NCBI GenBank assembly: GCA_038063735.1
Contig: JBBTUN010000010.1
Coordinates: 1 to 60,124 of the forward strand
Direction: 5' to 3'
DNA length: 60,124 bases
Origin: Patescibacteria group bacterium
Lineage (GTDB): Bacteria > Patescibacteriota > Microgenomatia > Curtissbacterales > GWA2-41-24
Below, one piece after another: positions 5,518 through 56,857 of the stretch. Position 1 is the first letter of the stretch. Each line of letters opens with the position of its first letter. A program made the position numbers and the translations under genes. Under the pieces are notes generated by a model, which saw nothing but the letters and a program-made list of their open reading frames with translations, had not been told where the DNA came from and did no database searches.

Positions 5518-6113
5518 AAAGTAGGAATCGAAGAGTTCACAGTTCACAGTTGACAGTTCACGGTTTCAGAGCAAAACTTCAGTTTGTTTTTTCCATTTTT
5601 TTGATTTTGCTGGGGGTGGTACTGGTTGGTTACGCGGCGAGTAAAAACTTTGATTTTAATATCCAGCGGTCTAACAATCCGACAACTCAACAACCTGTTA
5701 CAACCAGGACTCAGTTTAGCAAAATAAAATCAATAAGTATTCCTAAGATAGAGCGCGATTTGGCAGTTTCCGACGGCAAGTTTGAAAATGGTAGGTGGGA
5801 AGTTGCTGCGGAAGGAGTGTCTTTTTATACACAATCTGCTTTGCCTGAAGCTGGTGGCAATACGGTTTTGTATGGGCACAACAAGGCGCGAATTTTGGGA
5901 GGACTTGTAGATATGAGGAAAGGTGACATGATCGAATTGAGACTTGAGAATGGAGAATTAAGAAATTATGAGGTCACCGAAACAAAAACGATAAAACCAA
6001 CAGACGTTAGTATATTGAGTACATCTACCGATACAATTTTAACAATTTACACTTGTAGTGGATTTTTGGACACTTCGAGGTTTGTAGTGTTGGCAAAACT
6101 AGTAGTAGAGTGA
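5478..6113 (+). CDS. sortase (transpeptidase)
   Basis: Motifs 'NTVLYGHN', 'ILTIYTCSG' (TLxTC) and 'SRFVV', plus an N-terminal TM helix. The start is uncertain because the first ~30 codons run through an AGTTCAC heptamer array and overlap the upstream gene by 40 nt. Confidence 0.8.
   Translation: MAVKKGKGPRVKVKSRNRRVHSSQLTVHGFRAKLQFVFSIFLILLGVVLVGYAASKNFDFNIQRSNNPTTQQPVTTRTQFSKIKSISIPKIERDLAVSDGKFENGRWEVAAEGVSFYTQSALPEAGGNTVLYGHNKARILGGLVDMRKGDMIELRLENGELRNYEVTETKTIKPTDVSILSTSTDTILTIYTCSGFLDTSRFVVLAKLVVE
5534..5568 (+). repeat. heptamer array (AGTTCAC AGTTCAC AGTTGAC AGTTCAC GGTTTCA)
   Basis: Direct reading of 5534-5568. It lies inside the annotated 5' end of the sortase ORF. Confidence 0.9.
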
Positions 6114-9577: not shown

Positions 9578-9789
9578 AAGTAATTCCTGATTTCTTGGAG
9601 GGCTACCTTTCGGTAGGATCACTCTTACAAAAGGGTAAGCCCCCAAGAAAGATGGAAAGTAATGGATAGCAGTTGGTAGCAGGTAGCTGGTAGATAGTGA
9701 TAACAAAAAATAGTATTCGAGCTTGTCGAGAATTACAAAAAAAAGAAGAAGTTCTCGATCAACTCGAACAATAAAATAAGTAGATATAA

Positions 9790-14489: not shown

Positions 14490-14585
14490 GTGAGCTATGA
14501 ACTATGAACTGTGAACCATTAACCGTTCTTGAAATCAGGGTAAACCACGAACTTTTCACTTTTCACTTATCACTTATCACTTTTT
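14490..14585. repeat. composite heptamer arrays (ATGAACT family, then TCACTTW x4)
   Basis: 14490-14527 reads gagctATGAACTATGAACTGTGAACCATTAACCG. 14553-14585 reads ttttcac ttttcac ttatcac ttatcac. This is the left copy of the repeat that flanks hicBA. Confidence 0.85.
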
Positions 14586-14590
14586 AATTC

Positions 14591-14918: not shown

Positions 14919-14921
14919 TTG

Positions 14922-15248: not shown

Positions 15249-15320
15249 GAACTATGAACCGTGAACTATGAACCGTGAACTTTTCACTTATCACTTATCA
15301 CTTTTCACTTATCACTTTTT
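15249..15320. repeat. composite heptamer arrays (GAACTAT/GAACCGT, then TCACTTW x5)
   Basis: This is the right copy of the repeat flanking hicBA. It directly abuts the pilin stop codon at 15326. Confidence 0.85.
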
Positions 15321-15325: not shown

Positions 15326-15967
15326 TCACGGGTTGATGACGCAGTAGTTTCTATTACCGTTCCAAGCGTAGCTTGCGCCACACGGTGGGTTTGATGTTGG
15401 AACATTTTTATTATCTTGGTCTTTTGTGTTCTCTAGTGTGGCAGATATAACATAGGAATTATTTGGGCTTGAACTATCGTAATAGTAGTCTTGGGTTGTG
15501 GAACCAGAAAATGCAGGGTCTTTTGGCAATGGACTCATATATGTGACGGCTGGGGGATCTGGCGTTCCTGTTGCGTCACAAACAAAAACGGTTCCCCAGC
15601 TTTTTGCTGTTATGTCCCCGGTAACATTGCATTTAATTCTTCCAGCTTGCCCTGTGGTTTCGGTACTTGGGTATTTGCCGTTTTGTTGAAAGTATATTTC
15701 TAAAGCTTGCTGGACTGCTTTAAGATCGGATTTCCTTTTATTATCCCTGCCCTTCATCTGCGCGTTTGTGTAGGAAACGGTGGCAACGGCCATTAAAATG
15801 GCGATTATGGAGATGACCACCAACAATTCAATCAGGGTAAACCCTGTTGAATTGCGGTTAATGGTTAATGGTTGATGGTTAATGGCTCTTTTTCTAAATC
15901 TATGAACTATGAACTGTGAACTATGAACTATCTCGGGCAAGGACATACTTTTATGATAGCAAGTCAA
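15326..15967 (-). CDS. type IV pilin-like protein (prepilin-type N-terminus)
   Basis: 'GFTLIELLVVISIIAILMAVATVSY' is a class III signal/pilin helix. The C-terminal Cys pair ends in 'NYCVINP'. The leader of about 40 aa is encoded by heptamer arrays. Confidence 0.8.
   Translation of the reverse strand: MTCYHKSMSLPEIVHSSQFIVHRFRKRAINHQPLTINRNSTGFTLIELLVVISIIAILMAVATVSYTNAQMKGRDNKRKSDLKAVQQALEIYFQQNGKYPSTETTGQAGRIKCNVTGDITAKSWGTVFVCDATGTPDPPAVTYMSPLPKDPAFSGSTTQDYYYDSSSPNNSYVISATLENTKDQDNKNVPTSNPPCGASYAWNGNRNYCVINP
15856..15930. repeat. heptamer arrays inside the pilin 5' region (TTAATGG family and ATGAACT family)
   Basis: 15856-15885 reads ggttaatggttaatggttgatggttaatgg. 15902-15930 reads atgaactatgaactgtgaactatgaacta. 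Confidence 0.9.
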
Positions 15968-19659: not shown

Positions 19660-20070
19660 ATGGACGAAAGACTTCTTAGGCCCTCCACACTTGCTCTTCA
19701 GGGTTTGATACTCGTCTTTTCTTTGTGCCTAATTTATTTTACATTTGTATTTTATCCAAGCGTTGTAAAAGAGAAAAAGTTCGCAATAAATTTTAAGACA
19801 CCCTTCAGCTCCAAAGTAGTAGCCGGTGCCGAAACATTCCCAGTCGTTACAAGTGATTACAAGATTACTTACTCGAAAGACTCGGGTATTTATTATATGT
19901 TAGTGCAAGGTGCGTCTATCGATAAGTATGTAGAAAATAAGGCCGCGGCACAGCTCACCCTTAAAAATAGCCTTTCCTCAGAATCCCTTTGCAGTGAAAA
20001 AGTAATTTATTCTTCGGCTTCGTCGCTTGACCTTCCGGAGGAGTATAAATCCACCTCGAACTGTAATTAG
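19660..20070 (+). CDS. membrane-anchored hypothetical protein
   Basis: 136 aa with an N-terminal TM helix and no recognisable domain. Confidence 0.45.
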   Translation: MDERLLRPSTLALQGLILVFSLCLIYFTFVFYPSVVKEKKFAINFKTPFSSKVVAGAETFPVVTSDYKITYSKDSGIYYMLVQGASIDKYVENKAAAQLTLKNSLSSESLCSEKVIYSSASSLDLPEEYKSTSNCN

Positions 20071-20102
20071 GTTTACATGGTTCATAGTTCGTGGTTCATA
20101 GA
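20071..20102 (+). repeat. heptamer array (GTTTACA TGGTTCA TAGTTCG TGGTTCA TAG)
   Basis: It starts at the base after the stop codon of the 19660 gene. Confidence 0.85.
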
Positions 20103-20401: not shown

Positions 20402-21079
20402 ATGACTTATACGCTGGATAAAAGAATTTTATTAGTAAGAACAATAGGAAATTTTTTGGTTTTGGGCACAATTATTTCCATAGGTTTTACCTTTTGGCCC
20501 ATTATGTCAACCGTTGCCAGGCACAATATAGAAAAGTGGCAGGGGAAGAAGTTTGAGGCTTCTGCGCTTGCCACAGCCAGCAGCCAATCTTTTGGCTCAC
20601 TTCTTGGCAAAAGCGACGAGAACATAAAAATACTTGTTCCAAAGGACCCTAACTTTTCCATTATCGTTGAGAAAATTGGTGCGGATGCGACAATTGTGCC
20701 TAATGTAGATGCTTCCAATAAGGAAATCTATACCGCGGCATTAAGAAGGGGAGTTGCCCATGCGCTGGGTACTTCGTTTCCAGGTCAGCCCGGTGTGACA
20801 TATTTGTTTGCACACTCGACAGATACGATATTTAACGTTCCAAGGTATAACGCAGTTTTTTACCTTCTAAACGATTTGACGCCGGGGGACAGGGTGGTCA
20901 TATTTTTCAATAACAAACGCTACGATTATGCGGTTTCCGAGAAAAAAATCACCGAACCGGAAGATGTGGGGTATTTTACTTTAAAGACAACTGAGCAAAT
21001 ACTTGTTTTGCAGACATGTTATCCACCGGGAACCACCTGGAAAAGGCTTTTGGTGGTGGCAAAGCCGGTGAGTAGTTGA
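20402..21079 (+). CDS. sortase (second copy)
   Basis: 'VTYLFAHS', 'ILVLQTCYPPGT' (TLxTC-type motif) and 'KRLLVV', plus an N-terminal TM helix. Confidence 0.75.
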   Translation: MTYTLDKRILLVRTIGNFLVLGTIISIGFTFWPIMSTVARHNIEKWQGKKFEASALATASSQSFGSLLGKSDENIKILVPKDPNFSIIVEKIGADATIVPNVDASNKEIYTAALRRGVAHALGTSFPGQPGVTYLFAHSTDTIFNVPRYNAVFYLLNDLTPGDRVVIFFNNKRYDYAVSEKKITEPEDVGYFTLKTTEQILVLQTCYPPGTTWKRLLVVAKPVSS

Positions 21080-21159
21080 TGGTTCATGGTTCGTGGTTCG
21101 TAGTTCGTAGTTCATGGTTCATGGTTGGTGGTAGCTATGCTCTACGAACTATGAACTAT
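21073..21159. repeat. inverted heptamer arrays between convergent genes (terminator-like hairpin)
   Basis: 21073-21133 reads tagttgatggttcatggttcgtggttcgtagttcgtagttcatggttcatggttggtggtag. 21141-21159 reads tctacgaactatgaactat, in the complementary sense. The arrays overlap both stop codons. Confidence 0.8.
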
Positions 21160-22394
21160 TTTAGATTTATCGAGTAGAGGTTGGGAAGAGAATTTTCCGC
21201 CTGGGTCAATGTTGTCAAGATGATGAGCCTTGAGCCTGACGGGTGCGCAAAAACAAACCCATTGACGAATTTTCCGGTATAAATTGTCATTTTATTGTTG
21301 CCATCTGTTTCTATAATAGAAATGAGGTCTTTTTGGGCAATGACCAGGTGTTTTGAGTCCGGAAACCAGGAGATGTTAATTAAATCTGTAAGGTCCGGCA
21401 ATGTGTAATCTTTTTTGAGCTTAAGGTCGTAAACCTTATTTTTACCTTCCCCGTTTTTGTAAAGAATCTTTTCTTCGTCCGGCGAAAACATGAGGCCGGA
21501 AGGGGAGTAGTTAATTAGGTTCACAGTAGACGGTTCACGGTTCACGGTTTTTTTAGTGTTTTGGGTGGTTGGGGATTGTTTAACGCTTTTTGGTGTTGGA
21601 GACGGTTTGGTGCTGGCAATTTGCGCCGAAGTGGTGGCATCTTTTACAGAATCAGGGGCAAGAATTGCAGAAGTTTTAGCCCTTTCGTCCAATATTTGTT
21701 GCCAGCTCGTGAGTGTTGCAGCTAGTGAACCGGTTACGTCTTTTGCGCTCTGGTCGGATTTTTCGCTGTCCACTAGCAAATTAGCACTTGCCGTTCCGTT
21801 TTCGTCTTCGAACCGGGCGATTAGTTCTTTTGAATCCGGGTTCCAAATAAATCTGCTTTTAGAATAATCTGTACCAGGGGTGTTTTTGGCAAGCAGCTTA
21901 GTATTTTGCCTAAACGGAAACGGGCTGTTGTCCATTGGCAATAGATATAATCCACCGCGTTCTCCTGGAACCGCGTAGACGATTTTGGCGCCATCCAGAG
22001 ACAAAGTAGGGTTGGTGCTGCCCGTGGTGGTTAGCGGTTTAATCTCCGGCGCTAGGGGGAACAGAAGGGCATTTATTTCTGTTGCCAGGTCTTCTTTGAT
22101 GTCGACGTCTTTTTCCCAAGTCGTGTAGCCGTCTTTTTCTATACGGACTTTGTAAGTCCTTGGTTCAAGATAAGCGATGTTTGTGTTGGTTGCGGAAGTT
22201 AGCCGGCCGTCTAAAAAAACGTTTGCACCCGTGGGTGTTGAAGTTGCGACGATAAGGCCGGTTCTGTCTATAGTGCCTTTTTTAAGGTTTGGCTTGAAGC
22301 CGCGGGCATAAAAAATTGCTCCGAGAGCAACTAAAAGTACGATTCCTGTTATGCCAAGTGTAAAAAAAACGCGATATTTGGAAAGATGGGTCAT
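21156..22394 (-). CDS. membrane-anchored PEGA-domain / TolB-like beta-propeller protein
   Basis: N-terminal TM helix. The PEGA-like segment is 'TPTGANVFLDGRLTSATNTNIAYLEPRTYKVRIEKDGYTTWEKDVDI'. The C-terminal repeats are 'WNPDSKELIA', 'FSPDEEKILY' and 'WFPDSKHLVI'. Confidence 0.6.
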   Translation of the reverse strand: MTHLSKYRVFFTLGITGIVLLVALGAIFYARGFKPNLKKGTIDRTGLIVATSTPTGANVFLDGRLTSATNTNIAYLEPRTYKVRIEKDGYTTWEKDVDIKEDLATEINALLFPLAPEIKPLTTTGSTNPTLSLDGAKIVYAVPGERGGLYLLPMDNSPFPFRQNTKLLAKNTPGTDYSKSRFIWNPDSKELIARFEDENGTASANLLVDSEKSDQSAKDVTGSLAATLTSWQQILDERAKTSAILAPDSVKDATTSAQIASTKPSPTPKSVKQSPTTQNTKKTVNREPSTVNLINYSPSGLMFSPDEEKILYKNGEGKNKVYDLKLKKDYTLPDLTDLINISWFPDSKHLVIAQKDLISIIETDGNNKMTIYTGKFVNGFVFAHPSGSRLIILTTLTQAENSLPNLYSINLK

Positions 22395-25595: not shown

Positions 25596-26477
25596 ATGCC
25601 TGTCCAATCTGCGGTTAGTGATAAGAGTGGGGTTGTTGATTCTGATCCAAATGGTTTGTTGGGTGGTTTGTCGCCCAACGCCGTTCCTTCTTTTCCCGCT
25701 GGTGGCGCCAGGGCGCAGCCTGCACCCGCCGGAGGTTCTGGTAGTTCCCCAAAGAAGGGTTTATTCCATAATGCAAAGTGGTTTGTGTTATTGGCACTTC
25801 TCGTATTGATAGTTGCTTTCATCGCTTTCTTTTTGAACCCCGCTAAGCCTTTGGGGAAAGTGCCCACCTCAACGCCAAACAATTTGGAGGAATTTGTGGC
25901 TCCAATTAATGTTTCGGATGTGTTGTTTCCAAGCGATTTCCAACGGGACATATTCTTAAAAAACTTCCAGGATGCTGCCAAAACCGGTGATAGTTTAACC
26001 AGATATAAGCTGCTTGATGATAATTACACCAGGCTTTTGGGGTTTTACACTCAAGATCATGACCCAAAAACCCGCGAGGTGCTAACACAATATTCTACCT
26101 ATATGAAGAGTAACTATGCTGACCAAGCCCAAAAGAACAGTTATGCTGTGCCTTGCTACGATTTGGGTTGCGGAAAGGCCAATTACCTCGACGAGGCAAA
26201 AAGCATAAAAGAAACAATCGATGCCAGTACTGTCCTGGAAAAGGATCTCAAAGATAATTTAGACAAAAATTTTGAGGCTGCAGCATTTTCTGCTTCTAAA
26301 GAAGCGCAATTTTCGTATTACGAACAGGTTTTCCAGTCGCTTAAGGGCAGCTATGAAAAGACCAAAGACAACAATTTAAAAGAGATAGCAATTAAATTGC
26401 GGGATTTTATAAAGGCAAGTTATGCTGATTTGTACGAGGTGAATTTGAAAATTAAGCCGGACTTATTTGATATATGA
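25596..26477 (+). CDS. bitopic membrane protein with a helical ectodomain (partner A of giant protein A)
   Basis: 293 aa with a TM helix (WFVLLALLVLIVAFIAFFL). It is a paralog of 30046..30861, sharing 'RYKLL[DE][DE]N[YF]..L.GFYT' and the Cys pair C-x-D-x-x-C-G. Its stop overlaps the next ATG (ATGA). Confidence 0.6.
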   Translation: MPVQSAVSDKSGVVDSDPNGLLGGLSPNAVPSFPAGGARAQPAPAGGSGSSPKKGLFHNAKWFVLLALLVLIVAFIAFFLNPAKPLGKVPTSTPNNLEEFVAPINVSDVLFPSDFQRDIFLKNFQDAAKTGDSLTRYKLLDDNYTRLLGFYTQDHDPKTREVLTQYSTYMKSNYADQAQKNSYAVPCYDLGCGKANYLDEAKSIKETIDASTVLEKDLKDNLDKNFEAAAFSASKEAQFSYYEQVFQSLKGSYEKTKDNNLKEIAIKLRDFIKASYADLYEVNLKIKPDLFDI

Positions 26478-29400
26478 GAAAACTTTTCTTATTTTCGGTT
26501 GTTTTTATAGCAGCGTTTTTGTTTTTTGTTAGTGCCGGAGCCAGGAAAGCTAATGCACTAGAATTGGGGTCTTCGGCCATAGTTTCTGGATGGCTTGATA
26601 ACACGACCGGGACTATACCGATTACAGTAACGGTTTCGTTTTATTCGGGGGCTGCCGGCAGCCCATTCTTGCTTCCTGCGCCGAATCCTCAAGTTTATGT
26701 GGTGCCGGTAGGACAAAGGGTTTCGGCAAGCTATGCAGATTTTACAGATCGCGGGTGGTATCAGATAAGCTGGGGAACAAGTTGTACAGACCCACCGGTA
26801 CAAACCAGTAATGCAGTCGTACCGGGTGCTTATATTTTTGCCAGCCAGGATGTACACTGCACGACTCCAAATGCGACACCTTCGATTTCTAACACTGCTT
26901 GCGCCAATTTTGGCTGGACTTTGGCGGGTGTTGGCAGTAACGGTGCCAATATCTCCTCATTTGAGATTTTTATGTCGCAGACCCAAAGCGACCTTACGTC
27001 AAATGGTGGTGATCCTGCAATTGGTCCTTACGTTAGTAAGACATCTACTGCGAGATCCCACGACTTTGGCGCACTTTCGCCTGGCACGTATTATGTGAGG
27101 GTGAGGGCAGTTTCGCCGCAGGGAATTGGCAGTTGGTCTTCGGTTAACCAGTTTACCTGCGCACCGGCAGGGTTGGCACCAGTTGCAGCCTCGGGTTTAA
27201 ACGCATCCAGAAGTTGCAACGGCTCCGGAGCGATTACTGCCAATATTGTCAACGTCGCCTTTACTTGGACAAGGTCTACTCCGACGCCAAGTGACGAGCA
27301 ATGGATAGATTATTCTGTTTTCAACAACAATTTTGGGGGCGGGTATGCGAATGCTGGTGTGAATGGTGCAAGTTCCTACAACGGTACAGGATTTGCCCAG
27401 AATATCCGCTATTATTGGCGAATAAACAACAGGTATGGCACAAACTGGTATCCATCGGCAACGGGCAGTTTTGTAACGCCGACTTGCCCGCCCGGAAGTG
27501 TTGGCGGACCGACTCCGCCTCCTGTCTCGCCACCGCCGCTGCCACCTGGAGATATTTCAATAACTGGTGTTGCAGACTGCAGTCTGGGTGGAACGAAATT
27601 AAATTGGAGTATTTCGTACCTTCCTGTTCCGTCTGGTTGGCAACAAATAGAGACAGGAATTTCGTACGCTCCGCTTGCAATCGGTTCACAAGGGTTTGTG
27701 CAGCCCAGTTTTTGGGTTGGGGCAAGCCCTCACTTCTATACAAATGTTCAAGTTCAGAATGAAACTATAACGATACCTTTTGGAGTCACAAATCCTCTTC
27801 CTAATGCTTCCCGCTCGGGGGCGGGATATGCGCCATATACAAGCACCAATAACTTTGGCCAAACATACACTTACTACGCATGGGCTTTTTATAGTGTTGA
27901 AAATCCGCCAGGTTCGGGATCCTGGCAAACCGGGCAAACTGTATCTGCCGGTTCAATAACGATTACAAACCCGGCAAGTTGTGCGCCGGCTATTACTTAC
28001 TCAATAACCGCTAGTGGCACCACAGATTGCATTGACGGGACAAATGCCAAGGTCCATTTAACTTGGACTTCGGACACGGATAATACAACTTATACGATTT
28101 ATAAAGATGGGGTTGCGCAGTCTCCGACAGTTGTCGGGGTGGGGCGGTCGTGGGATTCGGGGCCTGAACCGTCGGGGCAAACGCCCTCGTGGGTGGTGCG
28201 GGGAACCGGAGGGGTAGCCGGGACGGTAAATTCGAATGCGGCTTCTGTGACTACCGCTGCCTGTGAACCTCCGCCCGCAAATCCGGCTCAACTTTCGATA
28301 TCGATTTCATGTAACGGGTCAAATCCTGAAGTTTTCTTTAGATTTACCGATTGGTCTACGAATGAAGACGGGTTTTGGCTTGACGTCAATACCCAACCTT
28401 GGACTGGTCCAACGGCGCCTTCGCCTTGGGGAGTTAAAACTATTACCAGCACTCTTGCTCAAAAAGTTGCAGTTGGGCTACCGAAGCGAACGTTTACTTG
28501 GAACAATGCGGTTTCGACTAACACGGCGGGTCCGCTGGATCTTGGTGGTGATGTTGATGGTGTTACCCCCGGTGCCCAGCTTACACCCGCCAAAAGCACC
28601 AAATATTACTGGCGTGTTAAGGCTTTTAACGCCAGCAGACAAAGTGAGCACGTTTATCCCGCTTCCGGTACTATTGCGCCCGGCGCTTATTTTGAAACGC
28701 TCTCGTGTACACCAAATTATGATTTAAGTGCCAGAATAGTACCTAATTCCTGGAACAAGCAAATTTTTGACGTTGGTGAAACGGCAACACTTAAGGTTGA
28801 GATTACAAATTTACAAACGTCAACAGCGGCTTCCGCGCCTTCGAAGCTTTACTTTTTTCCGGATGGTGTCGGTTTACCTGTTTGCAAAAACCTGGTGGAT
28901 GGGACCTTGGACCCGACTTCTTCTCCGGCAACAGGCGTGCCAAAGGATGCAACGGGTATTGCGAACCAATCGTATGATGTCCTGCCAATTCCTGTTGCGG
29001 ATCCGCTGGTTCCCGGCAGCGGTACGCGGACAATTGATGTAGAGTTTATAGTAAGTAATACGCCAACTAGTTTAACCGGTTATGCGTATGTTGTCCCGTC
29101 GTGTTCTTTTTTGCCGGACATTGGTATAGACCCTAATTTTTTTAACAACCAATCCTTCGGGTTTACGTATATTGTAGGTTCGGATGGGTTTTTTGAAACG
29201 CAGGGCGGAGATGTAGGCGCAGTCGGCAATGTTTCGGTTGCCGTTAAATCCAGCGGCCTTGGGCTTTACCAGTCGGATTATGTGATTGCTGCCGACGATA
29301 TTGAAGATGAGGTGGTTTCTAAAAAAGGTTGGATGCTTGAGAATTACAACAAAAAGTTTGTGCCAACTGGCGGTTTATACGAGCTTTTTGATAAGAAGTT

Positions 29401-29911
29401 TAAAGGTGGAGCTACTTCAACGTGTTCGTTTACGCTATCTACTGCAATAAATTATTGCAGTGGGAATTTGACATTTAACACCTCCGATAGCGCGCCGATT
29501 GGGGATCATGTGTATTTTGTGGAGGGTAACTTGAGAATAAAGAAAAATTTTGAGCTAAATGCAGCAAGCACAATGGTCTTTTTGGTCAATGGCAATGTAA
29601 CTGTCGATCTGCGTGAGAACGGAACAGGACCTTTTGTTAATAGGGTTGACGGCATTTATATTGTCAAAGGGGTATTTTACGATAGCGATGTGGCCGATGC
29701 CGGAATTGCCACGCCTGCTGACGCCTTAACTTTAAACGGTGCACTTTACGCTGAAAATCTCGCGGGCGGGCTTAACTTAAAGCGTTATTTTACAGGACCA
29801 TATAATGCTACTAACGCCCCAAATAGGTTTGTATGGGATCCAAAATATATTATCAAGCTAACCGACTTGATTGGAATAAAATCGATACAGTGGAGGGAAG
29901 TAGCGCCCTAA
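26474..29911 (+). CDS. giant secreted multidomain protein A (Fn3-like modules plus a C-terminal beta-helix-like module)
   Basis: 1145 aa with signal peptide MRKLFLFSVVFIAAFLFFVSAGARKANA. Motifs include 'QDVHCTTPN', 'YYWR[IV]', 'STNEDGFWLDV', a Pro-rich hinge and 'GFFETQGGDVG'. The protein ends 'WREVAP'. Confidence 0.65.
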   Translation: MRKLFLFSVVFIAAFLFFVSAGARKANALELGSSAIVSGWLDNTTGTIPITVTVSFYSGAAGSPFLLPAPNPQVYVVPVGQRVSASYADFTDRGWYQISWGTSCTDPPVQTSNAVVPGAYIFASQDVHCTTPNATPSISNTACANFGWTLAGVGSNGANISSFEIFMSQTQSDLTSNGGDPAIGPYVSKTSTARSHDFGALSPGTYYVRVRAVSPQGIGSWSSVNQFTCAPAGLAPVAASGLNASRSCNGSGAITANIVNVAFTWTRSTPTPSDEQWIDYSVFNNNFGGGYANAGVNGASSYNGTGFAQNIRYYWRINNRYGTNWYPSATGSFVTPTCPPGSVGGPTPPPVSPPPLPPGDISITGVADCSLGGTKLNWSISYLPVPSGWQQIETGISYAPLAIGSQGFVQPSFWVGASPHFYTNVQVQNETITIPFGVTNPLPNASRSGAGYAPYTSTNNFGQTYTYYAWAFYSVENPPGSGSWQTGQTVSAGSITITNPASCAPAITYSITASGTTDCIDGTNAKVHLTWTSDTDNTTYTIYKDGVAQSPTVVGVGRSWDSGPEPSGQTPSWVVRGTGGVAGTVNSNAASVTTAACEPPPANPAQLSISISCNGSNPEVFFRFTDWSTNEDGFWLDVNTQPWTGPTAPSPWGVKTITSTLAQKVAVGLPKRTFTWNNAVSTNTAGPLDLGGDVDGVTPGAQLTPAKSTKYYWRVKAFNASRQSEHVYPASGTIAPGAYFETLSCTPNYDLSARIVPNSWNKQIFDVGETATLKVEITNLQTSTAASAPSKLYFFPDGVGLPVCKNLVDGTLDPTSSPATGVPKDATGIANQSYDVLPIPVADPLVPGSGTRTIDVEFIVSNTPTSLTGYAYVVPSCSFLPDIGIDPNFFNNQSFGFTYIVGSDGFFETQGGDVGAVGNVSVAVKSSGLGLYQSDYVIAADDIEDEVVSKKGWMLENYNKKFVPTGGLYELFDKKFKGGATSTCSFTLSTAINYCSGNLTFNTSDSAPIGDHVYFVEGNLRIKKNFELNAASTMVFLVNGNVTVDLRENGTGPFVNRVDGIYIVKGVFYDSDVADAGIATPADALTLNGALYAENLAGGLNLKRYFTGPYNATNAPNRFVWDPKYIIKLTDLIGIKSIQWREVAP

Positions 29912-29925
29912 AGGCCGAAGGCCTT

Positions 29926-30039
29926 TAGTAGATAGTTGACAGTAGACGGTTGACAGAAGGAAAAAACTGTTAACCATGAACCGTGAACCGTGAACCGTGA
30001 ACCGTGAACTATTAATTATTAACTATTAACTATTAACTA
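29926..30039. repeat. archetypal composite heptamer hairpin element
   Basis: The structure is (AGTAGAT AGTTGAC AGTAGAC GGTTGAC), then aaggaaaaaactgttaac, then (CATGAAC CGTGAAC x4), then (TATTAAT TATTAAC x3). It is preceded by the hairpin aaaggcc-gaa-ggccttt (29909-29927). Confidence 0.9.
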
Positions 30040-30045
30040 AATAAC

Positions 30046-30861
30046 ATGCCTAAACTGCCTGAAAACCGTAAAGAAAGAGAGTTTGAACTTTTAAACAAGG
30101 ATTCCTGGAATAGGGGAAGTCTTGTCAAGCAAAAACCTTTCCATAGACCGAGGAATTTAAAGCTGCCCAAAAAACCGATCGGCATTTTGCTAGTTGCAGT
30201 TATTGTCTTGGGCGGGCTTTATATCTTTGTCCAGAAATATTACCCTGATTTGCTAAAACCTAAAGCGCCAATCCAAACGGAAGCTAAAGATTTTGAGTAC
30301 CCTGTCGACATTAATAAAATTTCTTACCCGAGCGATGTATTAAAGGAAAAGTTTTTGGCCAACTTCAAAAGTGCTTCCCTGGAAAAAGACAGCGACAAAA
30401 GATACAAACTCTTAGAGGAGAACTTTATTATGCTGCGGGGCTTTTACACGGCCAGCTCCGGATACGACTACCGCGTACAACTGGAGGCGTTTACCGACTA
30501 CATGAAGAAGAACTTTCCTAAGCAAGTCGAGATAAATAAAAATTTATACAACTATCTTTGTATCGATAAACAATGCGGGGAAGTAAAAAGCCCCAATGAG
30601 ATTGTCACGATAGCTGCCGAAATTGCCAAAGAAGATGCAATCAACAGCCAGGTTAAAGAGGCAGTGCTTAGAAACTTTGATGCTGCAGGTTTGAATGAAA
30701 AGGACCAATCGGCAAACTTCTATTTAAGCGCCTACTCAATGTTAATATCCGAGGCCAGGCGCACAAAGGACGCAGACGTTAAGGTAACAACCACCAAACT
30801 ATACGATTTTATCGTCAAGAGTTTCCCCGACATCAAAATTCCTGATGATTTAAAACTATAG
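30046..30861 (+). CDS. bitopic membrane protein with a helical ectodomain (partner B)
   Basis: 271 aa with a TM helix (IGILLVAVIVLGGLYIF). Paralog of 25596..26477. It ends 5 nt before the next gene. Confidence 0.6.
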   Translation: MPKLPENRKEREFELLNKDSWNRGSLVKQKPFHRPRNLKLPKKPIGILLVAVIVLGGLYIFVQKYYPDLLKPKAPIQTEAKDFEYPVDINKISYPSDVLKEKFLANFKSASLEKDSDKRYKLLEENFIMLRGFYTASSGYDYRVQLEAFTDYMKKNFPKQVEINKNLYNYLCIDKQCGEVKSPNEIVTIAAEIAKEDAINSQVKEAVLRNFDAAGLNEKDQSANFYLSAYSMLISEARRTKDADVKVTTTKLYDFIVKSFPDIKIPDDLKL

Positions 30862-30866: not shown

Positions 30867-33800
30867 ATGAGAAAGTTTGTTTTTGGAGTTGCGCTATTTC
30901 TAGGGCTGTTTTTTTTAAAATCGGTAAGCGCAGATGCAGCTTTGGCTGCGACCATTAGTGGAATACTGGACAACAGGCAGGGAAGCATTCCGGTAACGGT
31001 AAGTCTTTATGTTACCAACGAAAGCGGTGGCTCTGCAGGAAGTTTCTCTCAAACAGTCGCGCAGGGCACGAGTTCAACTTTTTTTCAAACTATCACATCC
31101 GGGGATTTTCCATCCGTTACCTGGTTTACGTCTTGCAACTCGGGAGCTACTACCACTTCCGGGTCTGCCGGAGCATATACTTTCACCCCTCAGGACGTTC
31201 ACTGCACAACGCCCAATTCCACCGTTTCTTTAACTTCTACAAGTTGTGCCGGCACAACAGGTAATGTTGGGTGGAAGGTTAATTTATATCCTGCGCCCAA
31301 CAATACCCCAAACATTGCCAACTTTAAGATTTTTAAGGCAGTTGCGCCCGCCTCGGCGGATACGGATACTTCGCCGATAACGGTTCCGTTGGGTACCAGT
31401 CCGTATAGTCAAAATTTAACCGGACTTTCTACCGGAGCTTATAATGTTAAAGTAGTTGCATATGCAAATAGCCCGGATGGTGGCAGCAGCGTAAGCGCTA
31501 CAGGCCAATTTACTTGCAATACAACAGTAGTAACAGTGCCGACTAACCTGGTTTCGACTGTTACCTGTTCCGGGAGCAATGTGCGAGTAGACTTTACATG
31601 GGCTGCGGCGGCGGGTACTACAATTGTCGGGTATTATGTCGAAACGAGTACGGCAATTACTGATCCCGGGCCTGGCGGTAGCTGGAATGGTCCGGGGGTT
31701 ACGCCCAGCCCTCCAACCAATACTTATGCAAAGATAGAAAGTGGTCTTTCCGGTGCCACAACTTACTGGTGGCATGTTAAGGCAACGCCCCAAACAGGCT
31801 CACTCTTGTATTCTAGTTCTTTGCAGTTTACAACAAACCCGCTAAGCAGCTGCTATCAAGCTGCGAATGCAAGGGAGACAAAAACGTGTTATGGCGGGAA
31901 TACAGGGGATATAAATTTCATTTGGGACACGGCAACACCGACGTTTGCAATTACTTCGCAATACATACAGTTTTCGACAGATCCGAATTTTGTAGCTAGT
32001 TCCGATTGGAGTGTGACGGTGGATGCGGCAAGTTATACGTTCTACAGTTTTAACACATATTTCCTCCCTGCTACCCGTTACTGGCGGATAAAAACACAGA
32101 TGGGTGGCCAGTGGTATTATTCGAATGCCAGGTTATTTTGGACGCCTAGTCAATGTAACACCGGGGTTTCTATGACAGCTGGGGGCGTTAGTTATTGCGC
32201 AGGGGATACACCATCATTCCGTTTTCAGCTGCTACCTTCCGGACAGCAACCTTTGGCGTACTATGTGGGTACGGGGCCGAATGGTTTAAACGTTACGTTC
32301 GTCGCTGCCTTTGACAACTATAGTTTGGACTTAGACAATGGACCATCCGGACATTACTGGCTTAGACATTGGAATTTTGCTGCTGCTTACTATGATTTGG
32401 GCAATTTAGCGCCGGCAAGCTGTTCGGCAGCGGTTAATACACCTGCAGCGCCTACAAGTTTGGGTTACCCCGCATTAAATACAACCTGCGATGTTAATAA
32501 AAAACCTCACGTTGGTTTTACTTTTAAGGATAATTCTACCAATGAAAATGAATTTTGGCTGGAAGTTTCTTCGCAGCCGTTTACCGGACCATCGACGACC
32601 AATCCGGATAACGTGTGGGCAAAGAAGGTAATTACCAGGACTGATGGTACAACAACGGGGGATACAATTACATTCGACTGGTATGACGCGACTACAACCA
32701 ACACGGCCGGGAGGATGGAATTTCCCAATGCTAATCCGCAGGCACCGCCGGCGAGTGAGCTTGTGCCCCTGGATTATGTCAGCTACTACTGGAGGGTTAG
32801 GGCGTATAACAGTGGATCAGCTATTTCCAGCGCAATTATGTACCCCAATGGTTCTGCTTTGAGTACGAGTGTTCCCACCGGCCTTTCATTTATGATTACG
32901 CCCCCCTGCCAGCTTCGCCATGATTTGAAAACAGAAATTGTTTCCGGGTCCTGGAGAAATAGCAGCGGGGTGCAAACACAATCGTTTGTGGCCAGCGAAA
33001 ATGTAAGTGTGGATGTTTTGGTTACTAATGTAGTAGGGGCGAATGTAACGACTTCGCCTGCACTCACTCCTCTTTATTTCTACTATAAGGGTGGTGCAAG
33101 CATGCCTGACTGTACAGTAGGTACCTCAGGAGGTACGGCACCGCCAGACGGAGCAATCCCTGCAGTTCCCCAGCTTTACACCATCAATGCCCTAGCACCC
33201 GGGGATACACAGACCATAACGGTGCTATTTAACGTGGGTAGCAGTGTTAGCGCATTTACTGCGTATGCATACGCAGCGCCAACATGTACTTTTACCGATT
33301 TGGGTACCGACCCCTCTTGGGGAAACAACAAATCCAATGGTTTTTCGTATACTGTCGGAGTTAACGGGTTTTTTGAGACATTTCGCGGTGATGTGGGGTC
33401 TGGAGGGAAAATAAGTGTGGGGGTTAATTCTTCTGCTTTTGCTACCCCGATATACCAATCGGAATATGCAATTGGCGCTGTTGACATTAATAATACGAAT
33501 TCGAATGTACAATCTAAAAACAATCTTGAGCTTGACGGATATTCAAAGAATTTAGTTCCGTCCGGTGGCGTTTACAAGTACTTTGCAGACAGGTTTTTGG
33601 CGAAAGCAAAGGCAAATGATCCTCTAGGCCAAACGTGTACTCTTACACATGGTGCCACCTATAATCTGGGGAACAAATTTTATTACTGTGCAGGAACCGC
33701 AAATATTGATGCGCTAAGTCTTGTGTCTGGCAACCCTGTATTTTTTATCGATGGTGACCTGAACATAAATAATAATGCTGGCTGGAACACCCCTTCGAAC

Positions 33801-34133
33801 GTAAATTCTGTTGTGTTTATTGTCAAGGGAAACATAAATGTGGCAACTTCGGTGCAAACTATTCGCGCTGTTTTAATTGCAGGCGGATCGTTTACAGACG
33901 GAACTAATGGTGGAGAAATATCGACGGGTATGGGTACTTCCGGCAAGCTTTTGATATGGGGTGCTCTTTATGTTGATGGGCAAATGAATTTGGTAAGGCA
34001 TTGGGGTGGAGGAGACATTGGTTTGAATGCAACTACACCTTCACTACAGGCTGCCAGCTATTTTGCCAACATTCCTTTACTTAACTCGATTCTTTCAACA
34101 TCTCCGGTTGGTTGGAAGGAAGTGGCGCCGTAA
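30867..34133 (+). CDS. giant secreted multidomain protein B (paralog of A)
   Basis: 1088 aa with signal peptide MRKFVFGVALFLGLFFLKSVSADA. The motifs 'QDVHCTTPN', 'YYWRVRA', 'STNENEFWLEV' and 'GFFETFRGDVG' occur in the same order as in A. The protein ends 'WKEVAP'. Confidence 0.65.
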   Translation: MRKFVFGVALFLGLFFLKSVSADAALAATISGILDNRQGSIPVTVSLYVTNESGGSAGSFSQTVAQGTSSTFFQTITSGDFPSVTWFTSCNSGATTTSGSAGAYTFTPQDVHCTTPNSTVSLTSTSCAGTTGNVGWKVNLYPAPNNTPNIANFKIFKAVAPASADTDTSPITVPLGTSPYSQNLTGLSTGAYNVKVVAYANSPDGGSSVSATGQFTCNTTVVTVPTNLVSTVTCSGSNVRVDFTWAAAAGTTIVGYYVETSTAITDPGPGGSWNGPGVTPSPPTNTYAKIESGLSGATTYWWHVKATPQTGSLLYSSSLQFTTNPLSSCYQAANARETKTCYGGNTGDINFIWDTATPTFAITSQYIQFSTDPNFVASSDWSVTVDAASYTFYSFNTYFLPATRYWRIKTQMGGQWYYSNARLFWTPSQCNTGVSMTAGGVSYCAGDTPSFRFQLLPSGQQPLAYYVGTGPNGLNVTFVAAFDNYSLDLDNGPSGHYWLRHWNFAAAYYDLGNLAPASCSAAVNTPAAPTSLGYPALNTTCDVNKKPHVGFTFKDNSTNENEFWLEVSSQPFTGPSTTNPDNVWAKKVITRTDGTTTGDTITFDWYDATTTNTAGRMEFPNANPQAPPASELVPLDYVSYYWRVRAYNSGSAISSAIMYPNGSALSTSVPTGLSFMITPPCQLRHDLKTEIVSGSWRNSSGVQTQSFVASENVSVDVLVTNVVGANVTTSPALTPLYFYYKGGASMPDCTVGTSGGTAPPDGAIPAVPQLYTINALAPGDTQTITVLFNVGSSVSAFTAYAYAAPTCTFTDLGTDPSWGNNKSNGFSYTVGVNGFFETFRGDVGSGGKISVGVNSSAFATPIYQSEYAIGAVDINNTNSNVQSKNNLELDGYSKNLVPSGGVYKYFADRFLAKAKANDPLGQTCTLTHGATYNLGNKFYYCAGTANIDALSLVSGNPVFFIDGDLNINNNAGWNTPSNVNSVVFIVKGNINVATSVQTIRAVLIAGGSFTDGTNGGEISTGMGTSGKLLIWGALYVDGQMNLVRHWGGGDIGLNATTPSLQAASYFANIPLLNSILSTSPVGWKEVAP

Positions 34134-34152: not shown

Positions 34153-34280
34153 GTGGACAGTAGACAGTTCACAGTAGACGGTTAACAGTTAATTGTTCAC
34201 GGTTCACGGTGAGAAAGTTGACAGAAAGCGGTTCACGGTTCACAGAAAAGAGTTAACGGTCAACCGTTTACGGTTTACAG
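34153..34280 (+). repeat. long degenerate heptamer array, GTTCAC sense
   Basis: ggacagtagacagttcacagtagacggttaacagttaattgttcacggttcacggtgagaaagttgacagaaagcggttcacggttcacag... It is preceded by the hairpin aaaactgc-gga-gcagtttt (34133-34151). Confidence 0.9.
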
Positions 34281-34643: not shown

Positions 34644-34762
34644 TACTATGAACAGTGAACCATTTACTGCCTACCGTGAACTGTCCGCTGTGAACTTCTG
34701 ACCTATTTTATCTTACTACGAACTATCAACTATGAACCATGAACTGTTAACTGTGAACTTTG
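34644..34762 (+). repeat. long degenerate heptamer array, GTGAAC sense (inverted relative to 34153-34280)
   Basis: ctactatgaacagtgaaccatttactgcctaccgtgaactgtccgctgtgaacttctgacc...ctacgaactatcaactatgaaccatgaactgttaactgtgaac. Confidence 0.9.
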
Positions 34763-34806
34763 ATCCACTTAATACCCGTTTAGGTTAACAAATTTTAAAG
34801 CGCTAC

Positions 34807-35865: not shown

Positions 35866-35867
35866 GC

Positions 35868-35935
35868 GGTTCATGGTTCATGGTATTTTGAAAATAGTCT
35901 TTTCTATTAACTATTGACCACTAACTATGAACTAT
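35868..35935. repeat. inverted heptamer pair directly after the mreB stop (terminator-like)
   Basis: ggttcatggttcatggt (35868-35884) is followed by ctattaactattgaccactaactatgaactat (35904-35935). Confidence 0.75.
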
Positions 35936-36709
35936 TTTGTTCTACTTTGCATCTAATTGAGTAGAGGTAACGGAAAATTTCTAAATTTTAATTTCTAAAT
36001 TTTAATTTCTCTTAAATTGTGTTGGGGTTGACCTAAAAAATACAAAAACAAAAAAATTGATGTTACATTTTTGCATTTTTTAACCTATTCGAGCGCCGCT
36101 TGGCGCGAAATTTTTAGTAGCAGTGTATCTACCGGCTTGCCAGTCTACCCTAAATAGTTGATTCGGTTGATACAACAGGTTAATCGGAGATAGAGAATTA
36201 AAGTATTTTTTTAACGTCGCCAGCGCTGTTTTAGTGGCCAATTTCTTGCCGGTTGGTTAGTATTGTTGGCATAAAAGACCGGCGGCTGACGACACTTTTG
36301 AAGCTAAATTGTAATTTCAGTGCCTTTTTTGGTTTTTGTCCCCAGCTACGAATATGGTCCTCGATTTATCCAGGGAATTGTGTTTTGTTGTTTTTCGTGG
36401 CAAAGAGAGCATGTTGACGTTGGGAGAACTTTTTGGATTGTTAACGTAGCTGGAGCTATTGAGCAAAATTGTTTGTTGAGGCTAGAAAAATTGCTACGGG
36501 TAGAATTATCGCAAAAGTAAAAGATGTTGGAAGTGTCTTAGTTTTTTGTATCATTAGGTATCTATGTATATGATATGGCGCTTTTTATATATCAGATATA
36601 TGTCAACTAGCTTCAATATTGAGGCTGAATTGGGCTATTTAGAGTTGAATGAGTTAGAATATTAATGTAACGAAGAACAATTTTATACCTAAAAATTTGG
36701 AGGCGATGA

Positions 36710-37510: not shown

Positions 37511-37826
37511 AAAGTAAAATTTTTGACAAATTTTTCAAAATTTAAAAATAAGGGCTCCTAGTATATTGTTATTAACGCTTTTTTAAAGCTTATAGATAAT
37601 TTTAAATTTTAAATTTTTAATTTTAAATTTTTAACGATCTGGCTTTAAAAATGATGCATTTGGCTAGGTTAAATAACTTACTCAAAATTGTATTTTTTGC
37701 TAAAAAGTTTCTCTAAAAAATATTGACTGATAGTAAAATTAGTGTATTTTTGTCGTTGATGGTTTTTGACCTTTGATGCTAGACTGAAGTTGTGGCTTAG
37801 GGCCCAGCTTTAACTGCCATATTCTT

Positions 37827-40702: not shown

Positions 40703-40915
40703 TTATTGATTTAGGGAAGTGTCGCCGGACTTTACCGCTCCCAATAGCCATAAAACAGCTTCTTTCTTATATCTGCGATCCCCGCGGGAGTTTATACGGA
40801 TTGCGGGAAGTTTACCCCGCTTGCCCCATCTTTTTACTGTGAGGGGAGCAACGCGAAGAATCTTTGCTACTTCTTTTACTGTTAACAAATCCGGCCAGTC
40901 GTCTCCTAGTGACAT
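40703..40915 (-). CDS. excisionase/MerR-type helix-turn-helix DNA-binding protein
   Basis: 'LLTVKEVAKILRVAPLTVKRWGKRGKLPAIRINSRGDRRY'. Confidence 0.65.
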   Translation of the reverse strand: MSLGDDWPDLLTVKEVAKILRVAPLTVKRWGKRGKLPAIRINSRGDRRYKKEAVLWLLGAVKSGDTSLNQ

Positions 40916-40917: not shown

Positions 40918-40955
40918 TAAATGGTTGATGGTTGATAGTTTATGGTTCATAGTTA
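40918..40955 (+). repeat. heptamer array abutting the HTH gene start codon
   Basis: taaATGGTTG ATGGTTG ATAGTTT ATGGTTC ATAGTTA. Confidence 0.85.
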
Positions 40956-42572: not shown

Positions 42573-42595
42573 ATTACTTTGTCACCTCCCTTGAA

Positions 42596-42630
42596 AGTTT
42601 ATAGTTTATAGTTAACGGTTCATGGTTCAT
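42596..42630. repeat. heptamer array filling the rplJ-rplL spacer
   Basis: agtttat agtttat agttaac ggttcat ggttcat. The last unit contains the rplJ stop codon. Confidence 0.9.
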
Positions 42631-56852: not shown

Positions 56853-56857
56853 TGGGC

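Follow-up and report, generated by a model that had tools for sequence, protein, structure and literature searches.

What are the tandem repeats of seven nucleotides that lie scattered over contig JBBTUN010000010.1, how do they arise, and where are they tolerated? The contig, analysed here over its whole length of 60,124 nucleotides (the window), belongs to a Curtissbacteria-like member of the Candidate Phyla Radiation (CPR) from groundwater. An earlier note, made from the sequence letters, had described a dispersed family of heptanucleotide arrays organised as imperfect hairpins, with an archetype at 29926-30039. We find that period 7 stands out among periods 4-13 and that several of the hairpins lie inside genes, where they are translated as parts of prepilin leaders. 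We thus consider it probable that the arrays are simple sequence repeats (SSRs) generated by slippage in weakly constrained sequence, with a side effect on pilins that resembles a contingency locus.

We scanned the window for self-matches at a lag of seven nucleotides (at least 12 of 14) and took the expectation from first-order Markov shuffles. The scan yielded 27 period-7 tandem arrays with a total of 857 nt, compared to 0.2 arrays expected, so that the dispersed family proposed before holds. Periods 4-6 and 8-13 gave 0-5 arrays each, mainly coding repeats of period 6, 9 or 12, and period 14 appeared as the harmonic of period 7. With a stricter scan, 12 arrays of period 7 remained and 0-1 of the other periods. 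Tandem Repeats Finder reported period-7 or period-14 repeats at nearly every locus of the earlier note. Two of these loci fared worse, as 57047-57106 repeats with a period of 8/24 and is no heptamer array, and at 20071-20102 an array is present but weak (3.4 copies, 76 % matches). Head-to-tail units of 7 nt are thus in excess over chance and over other periods, as in long SSRs and in short tandemly repeated repetitive (STRR) sequences. Two further repeats, at 43454-43511 and 46802-46916, with period 6/12/21 (CTTCTT..) and period 18, are unrelated and of coding type.

A unit RGTTSAY and its complement had been suggested to be common to the loci. Written as RGTTNAY, this unit matches the consensus of 14 of the 27 arrays in any rotation or strand, compared to 2.7 % of random 7-mers from the window. 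A second, AT-rich family (AATTTTA) comprises seven arrays, and the minor families are ACTTWTC, GGTAGCW, CTTGTCN and GTTTCCA. Most arrays (18/27) lie outside open reading frames (ORFs) of at least 80 amino acids, that is, in 15 % of the window. The remaining ones are found in N-terminal leaders or tails, in one linker and, as a weak case, in a sortase ORF. Many dispersed and chiefly intergenic loci, in the window as well as in related loci, are likewise a property of long SSRs and STRR sequences.

Could the arrays be artefacts of assembly or sequencing? Some related contigs do end at or near arrays (L083 at position 34154 of the window and L081 at 40861; handles of this kind denote related loci). 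Yet five independently assembled contigs from other sequencing runs, whose source is Hainich aquifer metagenomes, match the window, its arrays as well, at 99.99-100 % identity over 4.7-17.8 kb. Since these five assemblies agree across the arrays, an assembly artefact is excluded. Arrays furthermore recur in metagenome-assembled genomes (MAGs) of other sites and studies, which also disposes of the earlier concern about a local artefact, and an artefact cannot produce the frame conservation in pilin genes described below. We thus regard an artefactual origin as hardly conceivable. Contigs that encode proteins identical to those of the window match it at 100 % and are hence uninformative on strain variation.

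The archetype reads as first described. Its 5' arm consists of four RGTWGAY units (AGTAGAT AGTTGAC AGTAGAC GGTTGAC, 29926-29956), followed by AGAAGGAAAAAACTGTTAAC with the A-rich loop AGAAGGAAAAAAC. The 3' arm comprises CATGAAC (CGTGAAC)x4 and then TATTAAT (TATTAAC)x3, that is, five units and then four to five, and 4 nt separate it from the ATG of the gene at 30046, which has no Shine-Dalgarno sequence. As each of the three frames contains 4-7 stops, the archetype is non-coding. The adjacent gene (30046..30861) had no relatives in our search of genome contigs. At 29912-29932, right behind the stop codon of gene 26474..29911 and just ahead of the archetype array, 9 bp form a perfect stem around a GAA loop (CTAAAGGCC-GAA-GGCCTTTAG).

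Where two arrays of one family stand in opposite orientation, they form an imperfect hairpin. We observed this layout at 29924-30041, 15853-15934, 54601-54692, 56568-56700, 58673-58767, 59716-59792, 35866-35937 and 21070-21162. All eight loci fold significantly better than their shuffles (-19.7 to -37.4 kcal/mol, z -2.9 to -7.5 on the better strand), which supports the imperfect hairpins with an A-rich loop that had been read from the letters.

At none of the window's hairpins is the fold of the + strand weaker than that of the - strand, regardless of the direction of the neighbouring gene, because mismatched positions are G-U pairs on the + strand and C-A on the - strand. The + strand is G-rich throughout the window. 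GC skew is positive in every 2-kb bin but the first (-0.012), with a maximum of 0.26, and the cumulative skew climbs almost monotonically, although near 38 kb the genes turn from a majority on the + strand to a majority on the - strand. Some Microgenomates are known for a strong disparity between strands (PMC7143001). When pilin leaders of several genomes are considered, the antisense strand folds better in 13 of 15, and these genes are mainly found on the C-rich strand. We set aside an explanation of the G-U asymmetry by the sense of the RNA, as in the window the G-rich strand folds better whatever the gene direction. On the simplest reading, the asymmetry would reflect strand-biased C-to-T decay of inverted repeats that were once better, and not selection on RNA.

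The arrays had been taken for free-standing elements; several loci are instead parts of ORFs, which had gone unnoticed. The hairpins at 15855-15932, 54601-54692, 56568-56700 and 59716-59792 lie between the start codon and the cleavage motif G/FTLIE (the slash marks the cleavage site) of minus-strand genes. The hairpin-type loci in the minus-strand half of the window thus lie within genes and encode 28-48-residue leaders of type IV prepilin-like proteins. In total, five hairpin loci and one single-arm array are in frame in the N-terminal leader or tail of pilin-type and sortase genes, and one more array is in frame in a PEGA linker. In the leaders, the 5' arm is read as ..VHSSQF.., the A-run of the loop as R/K-K-K and the 3' arm as ..VNREP..; a further example of a leader peptide is MPKIVSSLWFIVHSLR.

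The reading frames of these leaders carry the main evidence for translation. From the upstream start to G/FTLIE, the pilin frame is free of stops in 15 of 15 array-bearing leaders (about nine genomes, some paralogues included), compared to 0 of the 30 alternative frames of the same leaders, which contain 1-8 stops each. Non-coding hairpins, among them the archetype, have stops in all three frames. We thus conclude that leader hairpins are selected to stay open in the pilin frame and are therefore translated. The remark that GTTCAY-sense arrays contain no stop codon, made in passing in the earlier note, has turned out to matter here. In several array-bearing pilin genes, the upstream ATG is the only in-frame start. 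As in contingency loci, a unit not divisible by three thus lies inside the ORF of a gene for a surface structure.

Long leaders are not confined to the window. With one of its pilins as query, we found 120 CPR homologues. The motif is recognisable in 118 of them, and in about 70 the leader comprises 28-56 residues. Such long leaders can be read as translated heptamer hairpins of different units (e.g. ..DHRFWILDFRK..HHLKSKI.. or ..VSGIWYLVSGIR..NTKYKILNTKY..), and DNA of several of the homologues confirms the arrays in the leaders. The remaining homologues have canonical leaders of 4-20 residues. As a control, we used generic pilins of many phyla from a metagenome scan with a pilin alignment. 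Among the matches listed, about 150 pilin genes on 80 randomly matched metagenome loci have short leaders, and a period-7 array occurs within 150 nt upstream in only 3 of them.

Gene callers place the starts of array-bearing pilin genes inconsistently. P0056 and P0138 were considered as frameshifted copies and rejected, as both are in frame and the callers had taken a later TTG or GTG. P0081 (L087) has no in-frame start and lacks the 5' arm; it is possibly a degenerate copy. Upstream of the leader ATGs, we noted a conserved TTAAAC/GTAATGCCC with no Shine-Dalgarno sequence and a -10-like hexamer a few bases upstream (seen at 54698-54740 and 59801-59835 and in L086, L169 and L173). Judged from these motifs, the pilin mRNAs may be leaderless or nearly so. 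Runs of 6-8 A form the loops of leader hairpins (54644-54650, ~56630-56640 and 59755-59760), and the archetype contains a comparable run at 29961-29966.

The motif TCAGGGTAAAC occurs six times with at most one mismatch compared to 1.1 expected (e.g. at 14476-14486, 14535-14545, 16012-16022 and 56670-56680). It was rejected as a separate small repeat, as it is the reverse complement of the pilin codons for G-F-T-L-I. Isolated pilin 5' fragments adjoin arrays in spacers, and one is found inside the long leader of gene 54739..56742 (..SSWFTLIHEG..). These stray fragments hint at recombination among pilin 5' ends.

To place the window among its relatives, we compared the density of period-7 arrays between sequence sets. 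The window contains 4.5 arrays per 10 kb, 160 kb around mreB of eleven Curtiss-/Daviesbacteria-like loci contain 2.2, and 95 kb of other Curtissbacteria pilin loci contain 4.4. For other phyla, the density is 0.06 (1.28 Mb around mreB at 69 loci), and for a random metagenome sample, it amounts to 0.34 (353 kb in the vicinity of pilin genes). In the CPR sequence sets, period 7 is the only inflated period. The units differ between genomes: RGTTNAY is found in the window, L174 and L176, GTATCTG, AATACAA and TTAAGTT in L182, TTTGGAR in L003-L006, and AGTGATA in L005 and L009. An idea that the arrays are DNA uptake sequences was dropped, as units differ within and between close genomes.

At orthologous sites, the position of an array persists and its sequence turns over. 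Both spacers flanking mreB bear arrays in the window, L002-L005, L007, L009 and L011, with a unit that differs per genome, and the site at 35866..35937 holds arrays of other units in L003, L005, L007 and L009. In the rplJ-rplL spacer, the window has five units and L005 four units of one family between conserved flanks, and L006 and L011 have hairpins of other families. In L001 and L004, this spacer is short, has a Shine-Dalgarno sequence and contains no array, hence arrays are dispensable even in an essential operon. The array that runs up to the ATG of a helix-turn-helix (HTH) gene without a Shine-Dalgarno sequence is present with differing units in L002, L005, L006 and L008 and absent from L001, L004 and L011. 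A promoter-like motif, approximately TTGATC-N15-17-TAGGTY.A.AAA, recurs between genes in the window (e.g. at 34764-34795) and in relatives (at mreB or the HTH gene, L001-L009). The array is located upstream of this motif at mreB and downstream of it at the HTH gene, where it is probably part of the 5' untranslated region (UTR) because the conserved motif lies upstream. The possibility raised before, that related genomes show no conservation, thus does not apply, as arrays recur and positions persist, if not sequences. The suspected bias was found for position, with a strong preference for spacers and leaders, but not for orientation: in a manual tally, eight single arms have one sense relative to transcription and four the other, with no consistent orientation.

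Copy number and sequence vary at the same site between relatives, as in long SSRs and STRR sequences. The earlier note had proposed comparing array lengths between strains for signs of slippage, and this comparison was informative, with one-unit differences in L168, in L190 and in the rplJ-rplL spacer. L168 lacks exactly one CCATTCA of the 3' arm compared to four contigs from other samples (L169-L172) that are otherwise about 98 % identical, and this deletion splits the long-leader ORF. L190 has (GTTCACA)x3 where the in-frame proteins of its 90 % cluster (P0006, P0163 and P0024; ..VHSSQFTVHSKKNSV..) require four units, and its ORF from the ATG is cut off by a TGA that lies in the 3' arm. As in contingency loci, two cases are thus found of alleles that vary by whole units and are either in or out of frame, although the gene of L168 could stay on through a start at a GTG. 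L190 also contains a run of eight A (1633-1640), where one added A would restore the pilin frame lost with the missing heptamer.

Other changes affect whole arrays. Between L182 and L188, all units of the 5' arm have changed from GTATCTG to GTATCAA or GTATTAA, with promoter and mature pilin conserved and an extra 25-nt insert in L188. Between L176 and L189, about 190 nt that comprise promoter and leader, with hairpins of unrelated families, have been replaced between a 100 %-identical upstream gene and the codons from G/FTLIE onward. Within L176, three paralogous pilins share nearly one leader of 40-42 residues, an example of homogenisation. We also observed GC-rich inserts of about 24-25 nt nested in the 5' arm of leader hairpins (L176 10026-10049 and two paralogous leaders; L188 ~150-175). 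One, CCCTTCGACTTCGCTCAGGGCAGA, is read as ..PFDFAQGRQ.. and another as ..FTSVQDKPIREG.., and they are present or absent among strains of one 90 % cluster.

Our preferred explanation is slippage. Replication slippage together with recombination would create and remodel the arrays, and turnover would proceed by gain or loss of single units, by homogenisation and by exchange of whole arrays. The arrays persist only in weakly constrained DNA: in spacers, 5' UTRs, in-frame cleaved leaders and N-terminal tails of pilin-type envelope proteins, and a protein linker. As 7 is not a multiple of 3, a change by one unit shifts the reading frame, and in pilus genes this may provide a capacity for on/off or leader switching like that of contingency loci.

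Several observations weigh against this explanation or against its part on pilins. Most arrays within one genome share a unit family, RGTTNAY in the window and other families in L182 and L003-L006. Independent local slippage does not predict such genome-wide sharing, which suggests spread between loci or a constraint acting in trans and thus keeps the two corresponding alternatives alive. Why the period is 7 is left unexplained. For one subfamily of the pilins, translation could in truth begin at a GTG that precedes the cleavage site by four codons (MK[HLR]G/FTLIE), where the NCBI annotation starts these genes; in that case, the hairpin would be a 5' UTR and the deletion in L168 silent. Both frameshift variants stem from consensus assembly of one sample. 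Furthermore, two sets of five near-clonal 20-kb contigs (drawn from L176-L181 and L182-L187, with 3 and 6 variable sites) contain no array indels, hence the arrays are not hypermutable on that scale. This stability argues against very high switching rates without being decisive, and rapid reversible switching of pilin genes is putative and unproven.

Going beyond slippage with a side effect, the leader hairpin might be a dedicated, clade-wide device for pilus diversity that combines unit slippage, rescue by the A-run and cassette exchange promoted by the hairpin. We consider this possible but improbable. If it were true, slippage of one 7-nt unit in either arm would toggle single pilin genes, the A6-A8 run of the loop may allow transcriptional or replicative slippage that restores the frame, and the inverted arrays, which are prone to form cruciforms, would join with the conserved FTLIELL codons in promoting recombination by which pilin genes or strains exchange whole promoter-leader cassettes. 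This would furnish the cells with a variable set of pili for attachment to hosts, uptake of DNA or evasion of phages.

Spread between loci would be expected if the hairpin modules were small non-autonomous mobile palindromes, of the type of MITEs (miniature transposable elements with inverted repeats), the hairpin-forming doublets known as REPINs or Rickettsia palindromic elements (RPEs), which copy themselves into spacers and genes, with periodicity as a property of the element. Like these elements, the modules are dispersed and palindromic, have a hairpin-doublet architecture and share a genome-specific unit family between loci; in-frame copies are tolerated in the PEGA protein, pilins and the sortase, as is the case for RPEs (PMC10969869). 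Presence and absence at the orthologous rplJ-rplL and HTH-gene sites and the sharp boundaries of the replacement between L176 and L189 are also consistent with mobility, as is the resemblance of the long leaders to a module set between 'MPK' and 'RG/FTLIE' of a canonical short leader. Furthermore, a 219-residue ORF on an array-rich Curtissbacteria contig (L183 1701-2360) has a weak match to a Y1 transposase (PF01797), which is of interest for a model of REPIN/RAYT type. In contrast to mobile palindromes, the loci read revealed no fixed element sequence, conserved termini or target-site duplications, although no systematic search for these was made, and the tandem heptamers change unit by unit. 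Arm length, unit number and unit sequence vary continuously, single arms are common, unrelated units occupy one orthologous site in different genomes, and the changes observed are unit-by-unit indels and concerted unit change. Nor did a cognate enzyme come into view in the window: as the earlier note had stated for transposases, neither a transposase nor a reverse transcriptase is found among the Pfam families listed (25/34, for 43 window ORFs) or in a set of 10 proteins. We therefore consider mobile palindromes unlikely. A constraint in trans could instead come from a DNA- or RNA-binding factor for which the arrays are regulatory sites, e.g. in translation initiation independent of Shine-Dalgarno sequences, a role that has been put forward for the TAACTGA repeats of Beggiatoaceae. 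Examples of such a factor would be a nucleoid protein or, bound to CA-rich leaders, a cold-shock protein or ribosomal protein S1. This would account for the unit family shared across the genome and for the C/A-rich-sense arrays that abut starts without a Shine-Dalgarno sequence at 30046 and 40915 and at orthologues in L002, L005, L006 and L008, a geometry as reported for the TAACTGA repeats of Beggiatoaceae; the rplJ-rplL array, moreover, keeps its family between the window and L005. A single factor is harder to reconcile with several unrelated families in one genome (RGTTNAY, ACTTWTC, AATTTTA and others), with close relatives that have other units at the site or no array in essential operons (L001, L004), and with the inconsistent orientation of single arms (8 vs 4). 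As no candidate factor was found either, we regard this explanation as quite unlikely.

The hairpins might finally be dedicated RNA structures, that is, terminators, attenuators, or processing or stability elements. Their folds do beat shuffles, with z down to -7.5, and several follow directly after stop codons or lie between convergent genes (35866, 21072 and 29926). Nevertheless, an intrinsic (Rho-independent) terminator requires a GC-rich stem and a U-tract, and no heptamer hairpin is followed by a U-tract. Matches to a terminator pattern are no commoner in the window than in shuffles, and the only coincidence with a hairpin is a 5-bp stem at 34255-34268; the pattern scan thus gave no support to arrays as transcription terminators. 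Rfam 15 at gathering score detects only tRNAs in the window. Irrespective of gene direction, the G-rich + strand folds as well or better. In 13/15 pilin leaders, the antisense of the mRNA strand forms the better fold, and many hairpins lie inside translated sequence. A function of the hairpins as dedicated RNA structures is thus very unlikely.

Table 1. Arrays and hairpins of the window, with their genes and the evidence for each (energies in kcal/mol; stops are given per frame, pilin frame first).
Position	Strand	Feature	Evidence and details
5531..5561	+	Single-arm (AGTTCAC)n in N-terminal tail (..RRVHSSQLTVHGFRAK..) of predicted sortase-family ORF 5478..6113	Sortase family matches; start codon putative
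9675..9695	.	Minor-family GGTAGCW array	
14490..14586	.	(CTATGAA)n + (ACTTWTC)n in spacer also holding pilin 5'-end fragments	
15249..15319	-	(GAACTATGAACCGT)n + (ACTTWTC)n directly 3' of pilin gene stop at 15326	
15855..15932	-	Hairpin (GGTTAAT)n + (CTATGAA)n, leader MSLPEIVHSSQFIVHRFRKRAINHQPLTINRNSTG/FTLIE of prepilin gene 15326..15946	Stops 0, others 3 and 5; fold -19.7 (+ strand) vs -7.3 (sense)
16060-16086, 53098-53120		Minor-family arrays CTTGTCN and GTTTCCA, respectively	
20071..20102	+	Array of GGTTCAT type, short and weak, following gene 19660..20070	
21072..21160	.	Hairpin between convergent genes, (GGTTCRT)x7-8 vs CTACGAACTATGAACTAT	Fold -37.4 (+) vs -18.8 (-), z -6.9; no U-tail terminator match
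21526..21551	-	In-frame array (TVNREPSTVN after TKK 'loop') in variable linker of PEGA-domain protein 21156..22394	Lag scan
29926..30041	+	Archetype, intergenic imperfect hairpin	Sequence, Tandem Repeats Finder, lag scan, RNA fold -25.7, z -3.6
34153..34280	+	RGTTNAY units, ~128 nt, AGAAA-type interruptions, after gene 30867..34133	Stops in all frames
34644..34763	+	Complementary-sense (RTGAACY) array in divergent spacer, upstream of mreB promoter-like motif	Tandem Repeats Finder, lag scan
35866..35937	+	Hairpin beginning at mreB stop codon	Fold -20.7, z -5.6
37596..37634	.	AT-rich sister family (AATTTTA)n, example	
7145-7172, 14068-14159, 19145-19168, 22697-22731, 35976-36010, 56752-56853		AATTTTA family, other copies	
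40918..40955	-	Array abutting ATG of 70-aa HTH gene 40703..40915, no Shine-Dalgarno sequence	
42591..42630	-	Array in rplJ-rplL spacer, 5 units	Lag scan, comparison with relatives
54601..54692	-	Hairpin, leader MPKIVSSLWFIVHSLRKKFNRPRTTNHEPRTKPA/FTLIE of 485-aa pilin-like gene 53240..54697	N_methyl domain match; ATG at -34 the only in-frame start; stops 0/2/3; fold -36 (+ strand) vs -16 (- strand); loop T7 on + strand (54644-54650), A7 in mRNA, giving RKK
56568..56700	-	Nested hairpins in long leader of 667-aa pilin-like gene 54739..56742	Fold, frame; leader contains 'WFTLIHE', fragment of pilin cleavage site; no ATG, candidate starts -48, -58, -60, true start uncertain
57047..57106	.	Array of period 8/24 (TAGTTCGA; TAGTTNGA) beside second gene for a 23S-rRNA-intervening-sequence protein	
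58673..58767	-	Hairpin, N-terminal tail MKLVNSSWLVVHGKKTCKAVKTINHQLSTTNYPG before membrane helix of gene 57515..58771	Fold -32.2 (+) vs -23.7 (sense)
59716..59792	-	Hairpin, leader MPKSVDSLKLTVHSKEKTVNREPLTVNKRQRRFG/FSLIE of pilin gene 59339..59800	Stops 0/4/3; fold -27.9 vs -21.3

The in-frame array of the PEGA protein has a counterpart in L176, whose orthologue contains a complete arm-KK-arm module (NSSQLTVDGSQKKQSVNNEPITTN; NSSQLTVDGSQ-KK-QSVNNEPITTN) in the corresponding variable linker. The assignment of the host follows from the genes of the window. MreB (34807-35865) is 79-82 % identical to MreB of Candidatus Curtissbacteria MAGs, compared to 47-57 % for Firmicutes, Chloroflexota and other phyla, and homologues of the window's pilins carry the name Curtissbacteria in NCBI records. 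A cyanobacterial host, considered at first, was rejected on these grounds. Apart from a pilin cluster and a nusG-rplK-rplA-rplJ-rplL cluster, the window contains genes for sortases, HicAB and proteins with CAP or PEGA domains. The HicA toxin and HicB-like antitoxin pair (14700-15206, -) is located between two array-bearing spacers. Two paralogous genes for 23S-rRNA-intervening-sequence proteins (four-helix-bundle, bAvd-like; 34282-34632 and 57127-57498, both -) have heptamer arrays at their flanks. Around the first, the forward array 34153-34280 and the reverse array 34644-34763 stand as if the gene lay in the loop of a giant hairpin. Homologues of these proteins are encoded directly downstream of pilin genes in other Curtissbacteria contigs (L168-L172 and L182-L187).

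The general phenomenon fits a known kind, the heptanucleotide long SSRs. According to summaries of Mrazek 2007 in PMC4679880 and PMC4692102, heptanucleotide repeats are the most abundant class of long SSRs in repeat-rich bacteria, and polymerase slippage on a contact of about 7 nt has been proposed as their cause. Inverted pairs of heptamer arrays are also known in Xanthomonas (GGGAATC). Similar to the long SSRs and STRR sequences of Xanthomonas (GGGAATC) and Nostoc (GGGGAYT), the arrays described here have tandem units of 7 nt in about 3-10 copies at many dispersed, mostly intergenic loci, unit families are genome-specific, and length and sequence vary at the same intergenic sites; some inverted pairs (Xanthomonas) and slippage as the proposed cause are further similarities. 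Unlike in those cases, the arrays occur in a CPR bacterium whose genome is small, RGTTNAY is not G-rich and thus has no potential for G-quadruplexes, pairing of two arms into a hairpin is the common layout, and arrays are systematically embedded in frame in prepilin leaders. The earlier note had likened the arrays to STRR sequences and stated a different consensus; the likeness is apt, and the units RGTTNAY, ACTTWTC and AATTTTA do differ. In the strict sense that reportedly goes back to Mazel in 1990, STRR sequences are CCCCAGT, TTGGTCA or CAACAGT in heterocystous cyanobacteria. With a Curtissbacteria-like host and the three units just named, the arrays are not STRR sequences in that sense, and RGTTNAY is one mismatch away from CAACAGT (STRR3).

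Direct repeats of TAACTGA are known from marine Beggiatoaceae, some cyanobacteria and Bacteroidetes (PMC4679880). These heptamers also lie a few nt upstream of starts that have no ribosome-binding site and in ribosomal-protein operons (PMC4679880), a geometry we find at 30046, at 40915 and in the rplJ-rplL spacer. In that system, however, a single exact unit prevails, 'related heptamers are rarely repeated', and only one inverted repeat is reported (PMC4679880), whereas the units described here are degenerate and belong to several coexisting families, with frequent inverted pairs.

Phase variation by SSRs is a further comparison. In the opa genes of Neisseria, pentamers (CTCTT) in the region coding for the signal peptide cause phase variation, and hmw1/2 of Haemophilus influenzae are said to contain 7-bp repeats. 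Here too, a repeat whose length is not a multiple of 3 lies in the cleaved leader of a gene for a surface structure, and natural variants of one unit lose the frame. In contrast, the arrays have two complementary arms, occur at many loci unrelated to the surface and do not vary in near-clonal populations. A stem-loop of heptanucleotide repeats (P6b) in the tRNA-Leu(UAA) intron of Nostoc, and small dispersed repeats nested in heptamer arrays, have reportedly been described by Costa in 2002 and Elhai in 2008. The complementary heptamer arrays of P6b form a hairpin of strain-variable length, as do ours, and the nested repeats resemble the small GC-rich palindromic inserts in an arm, here the 24-nt insert in the leaders of L176. 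P6b is a single locus in a cyanobacterial intron, whereas the arrays described here occupy many loci, some of them translated, in a CPR lineage.

What is new here is the CPR lineage, the regular pairing of arrays into hairpins and the systematic in-frame residence in cleaved prepilin leaders across the clade; our literature search returned no paper connecting heptamer repeats with the CPR. Earlier descriptions of heptamer expansion concern cyanobacteria, Xanthomonas, Beggiatoaceae and a few other groups. A density of up to about 4.5 arrays per 10 kb in a CPR genome that is small and streamlined shows that a generator of 7-nt repeats is not confined to large, repeat-rich genomes, and the CPR offer another lineage, far removed from the first, for asking why the repeats have a period of 7. 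For annotation, the inconsistent starts that gene callers assign to array-bearing pilin genes are of note. Type IV pili are thought to be central to the lifestyle of the CPR, in host attachment and DNA uptake. In many pilins of the clade, leaders of 30-45 residues are translated DNA hairpins, and these differ between strains with identical mature proteins. Loss of the leader frame by slippage of one unit is thus a testable route to pilus variation in genetically intractable organisms.

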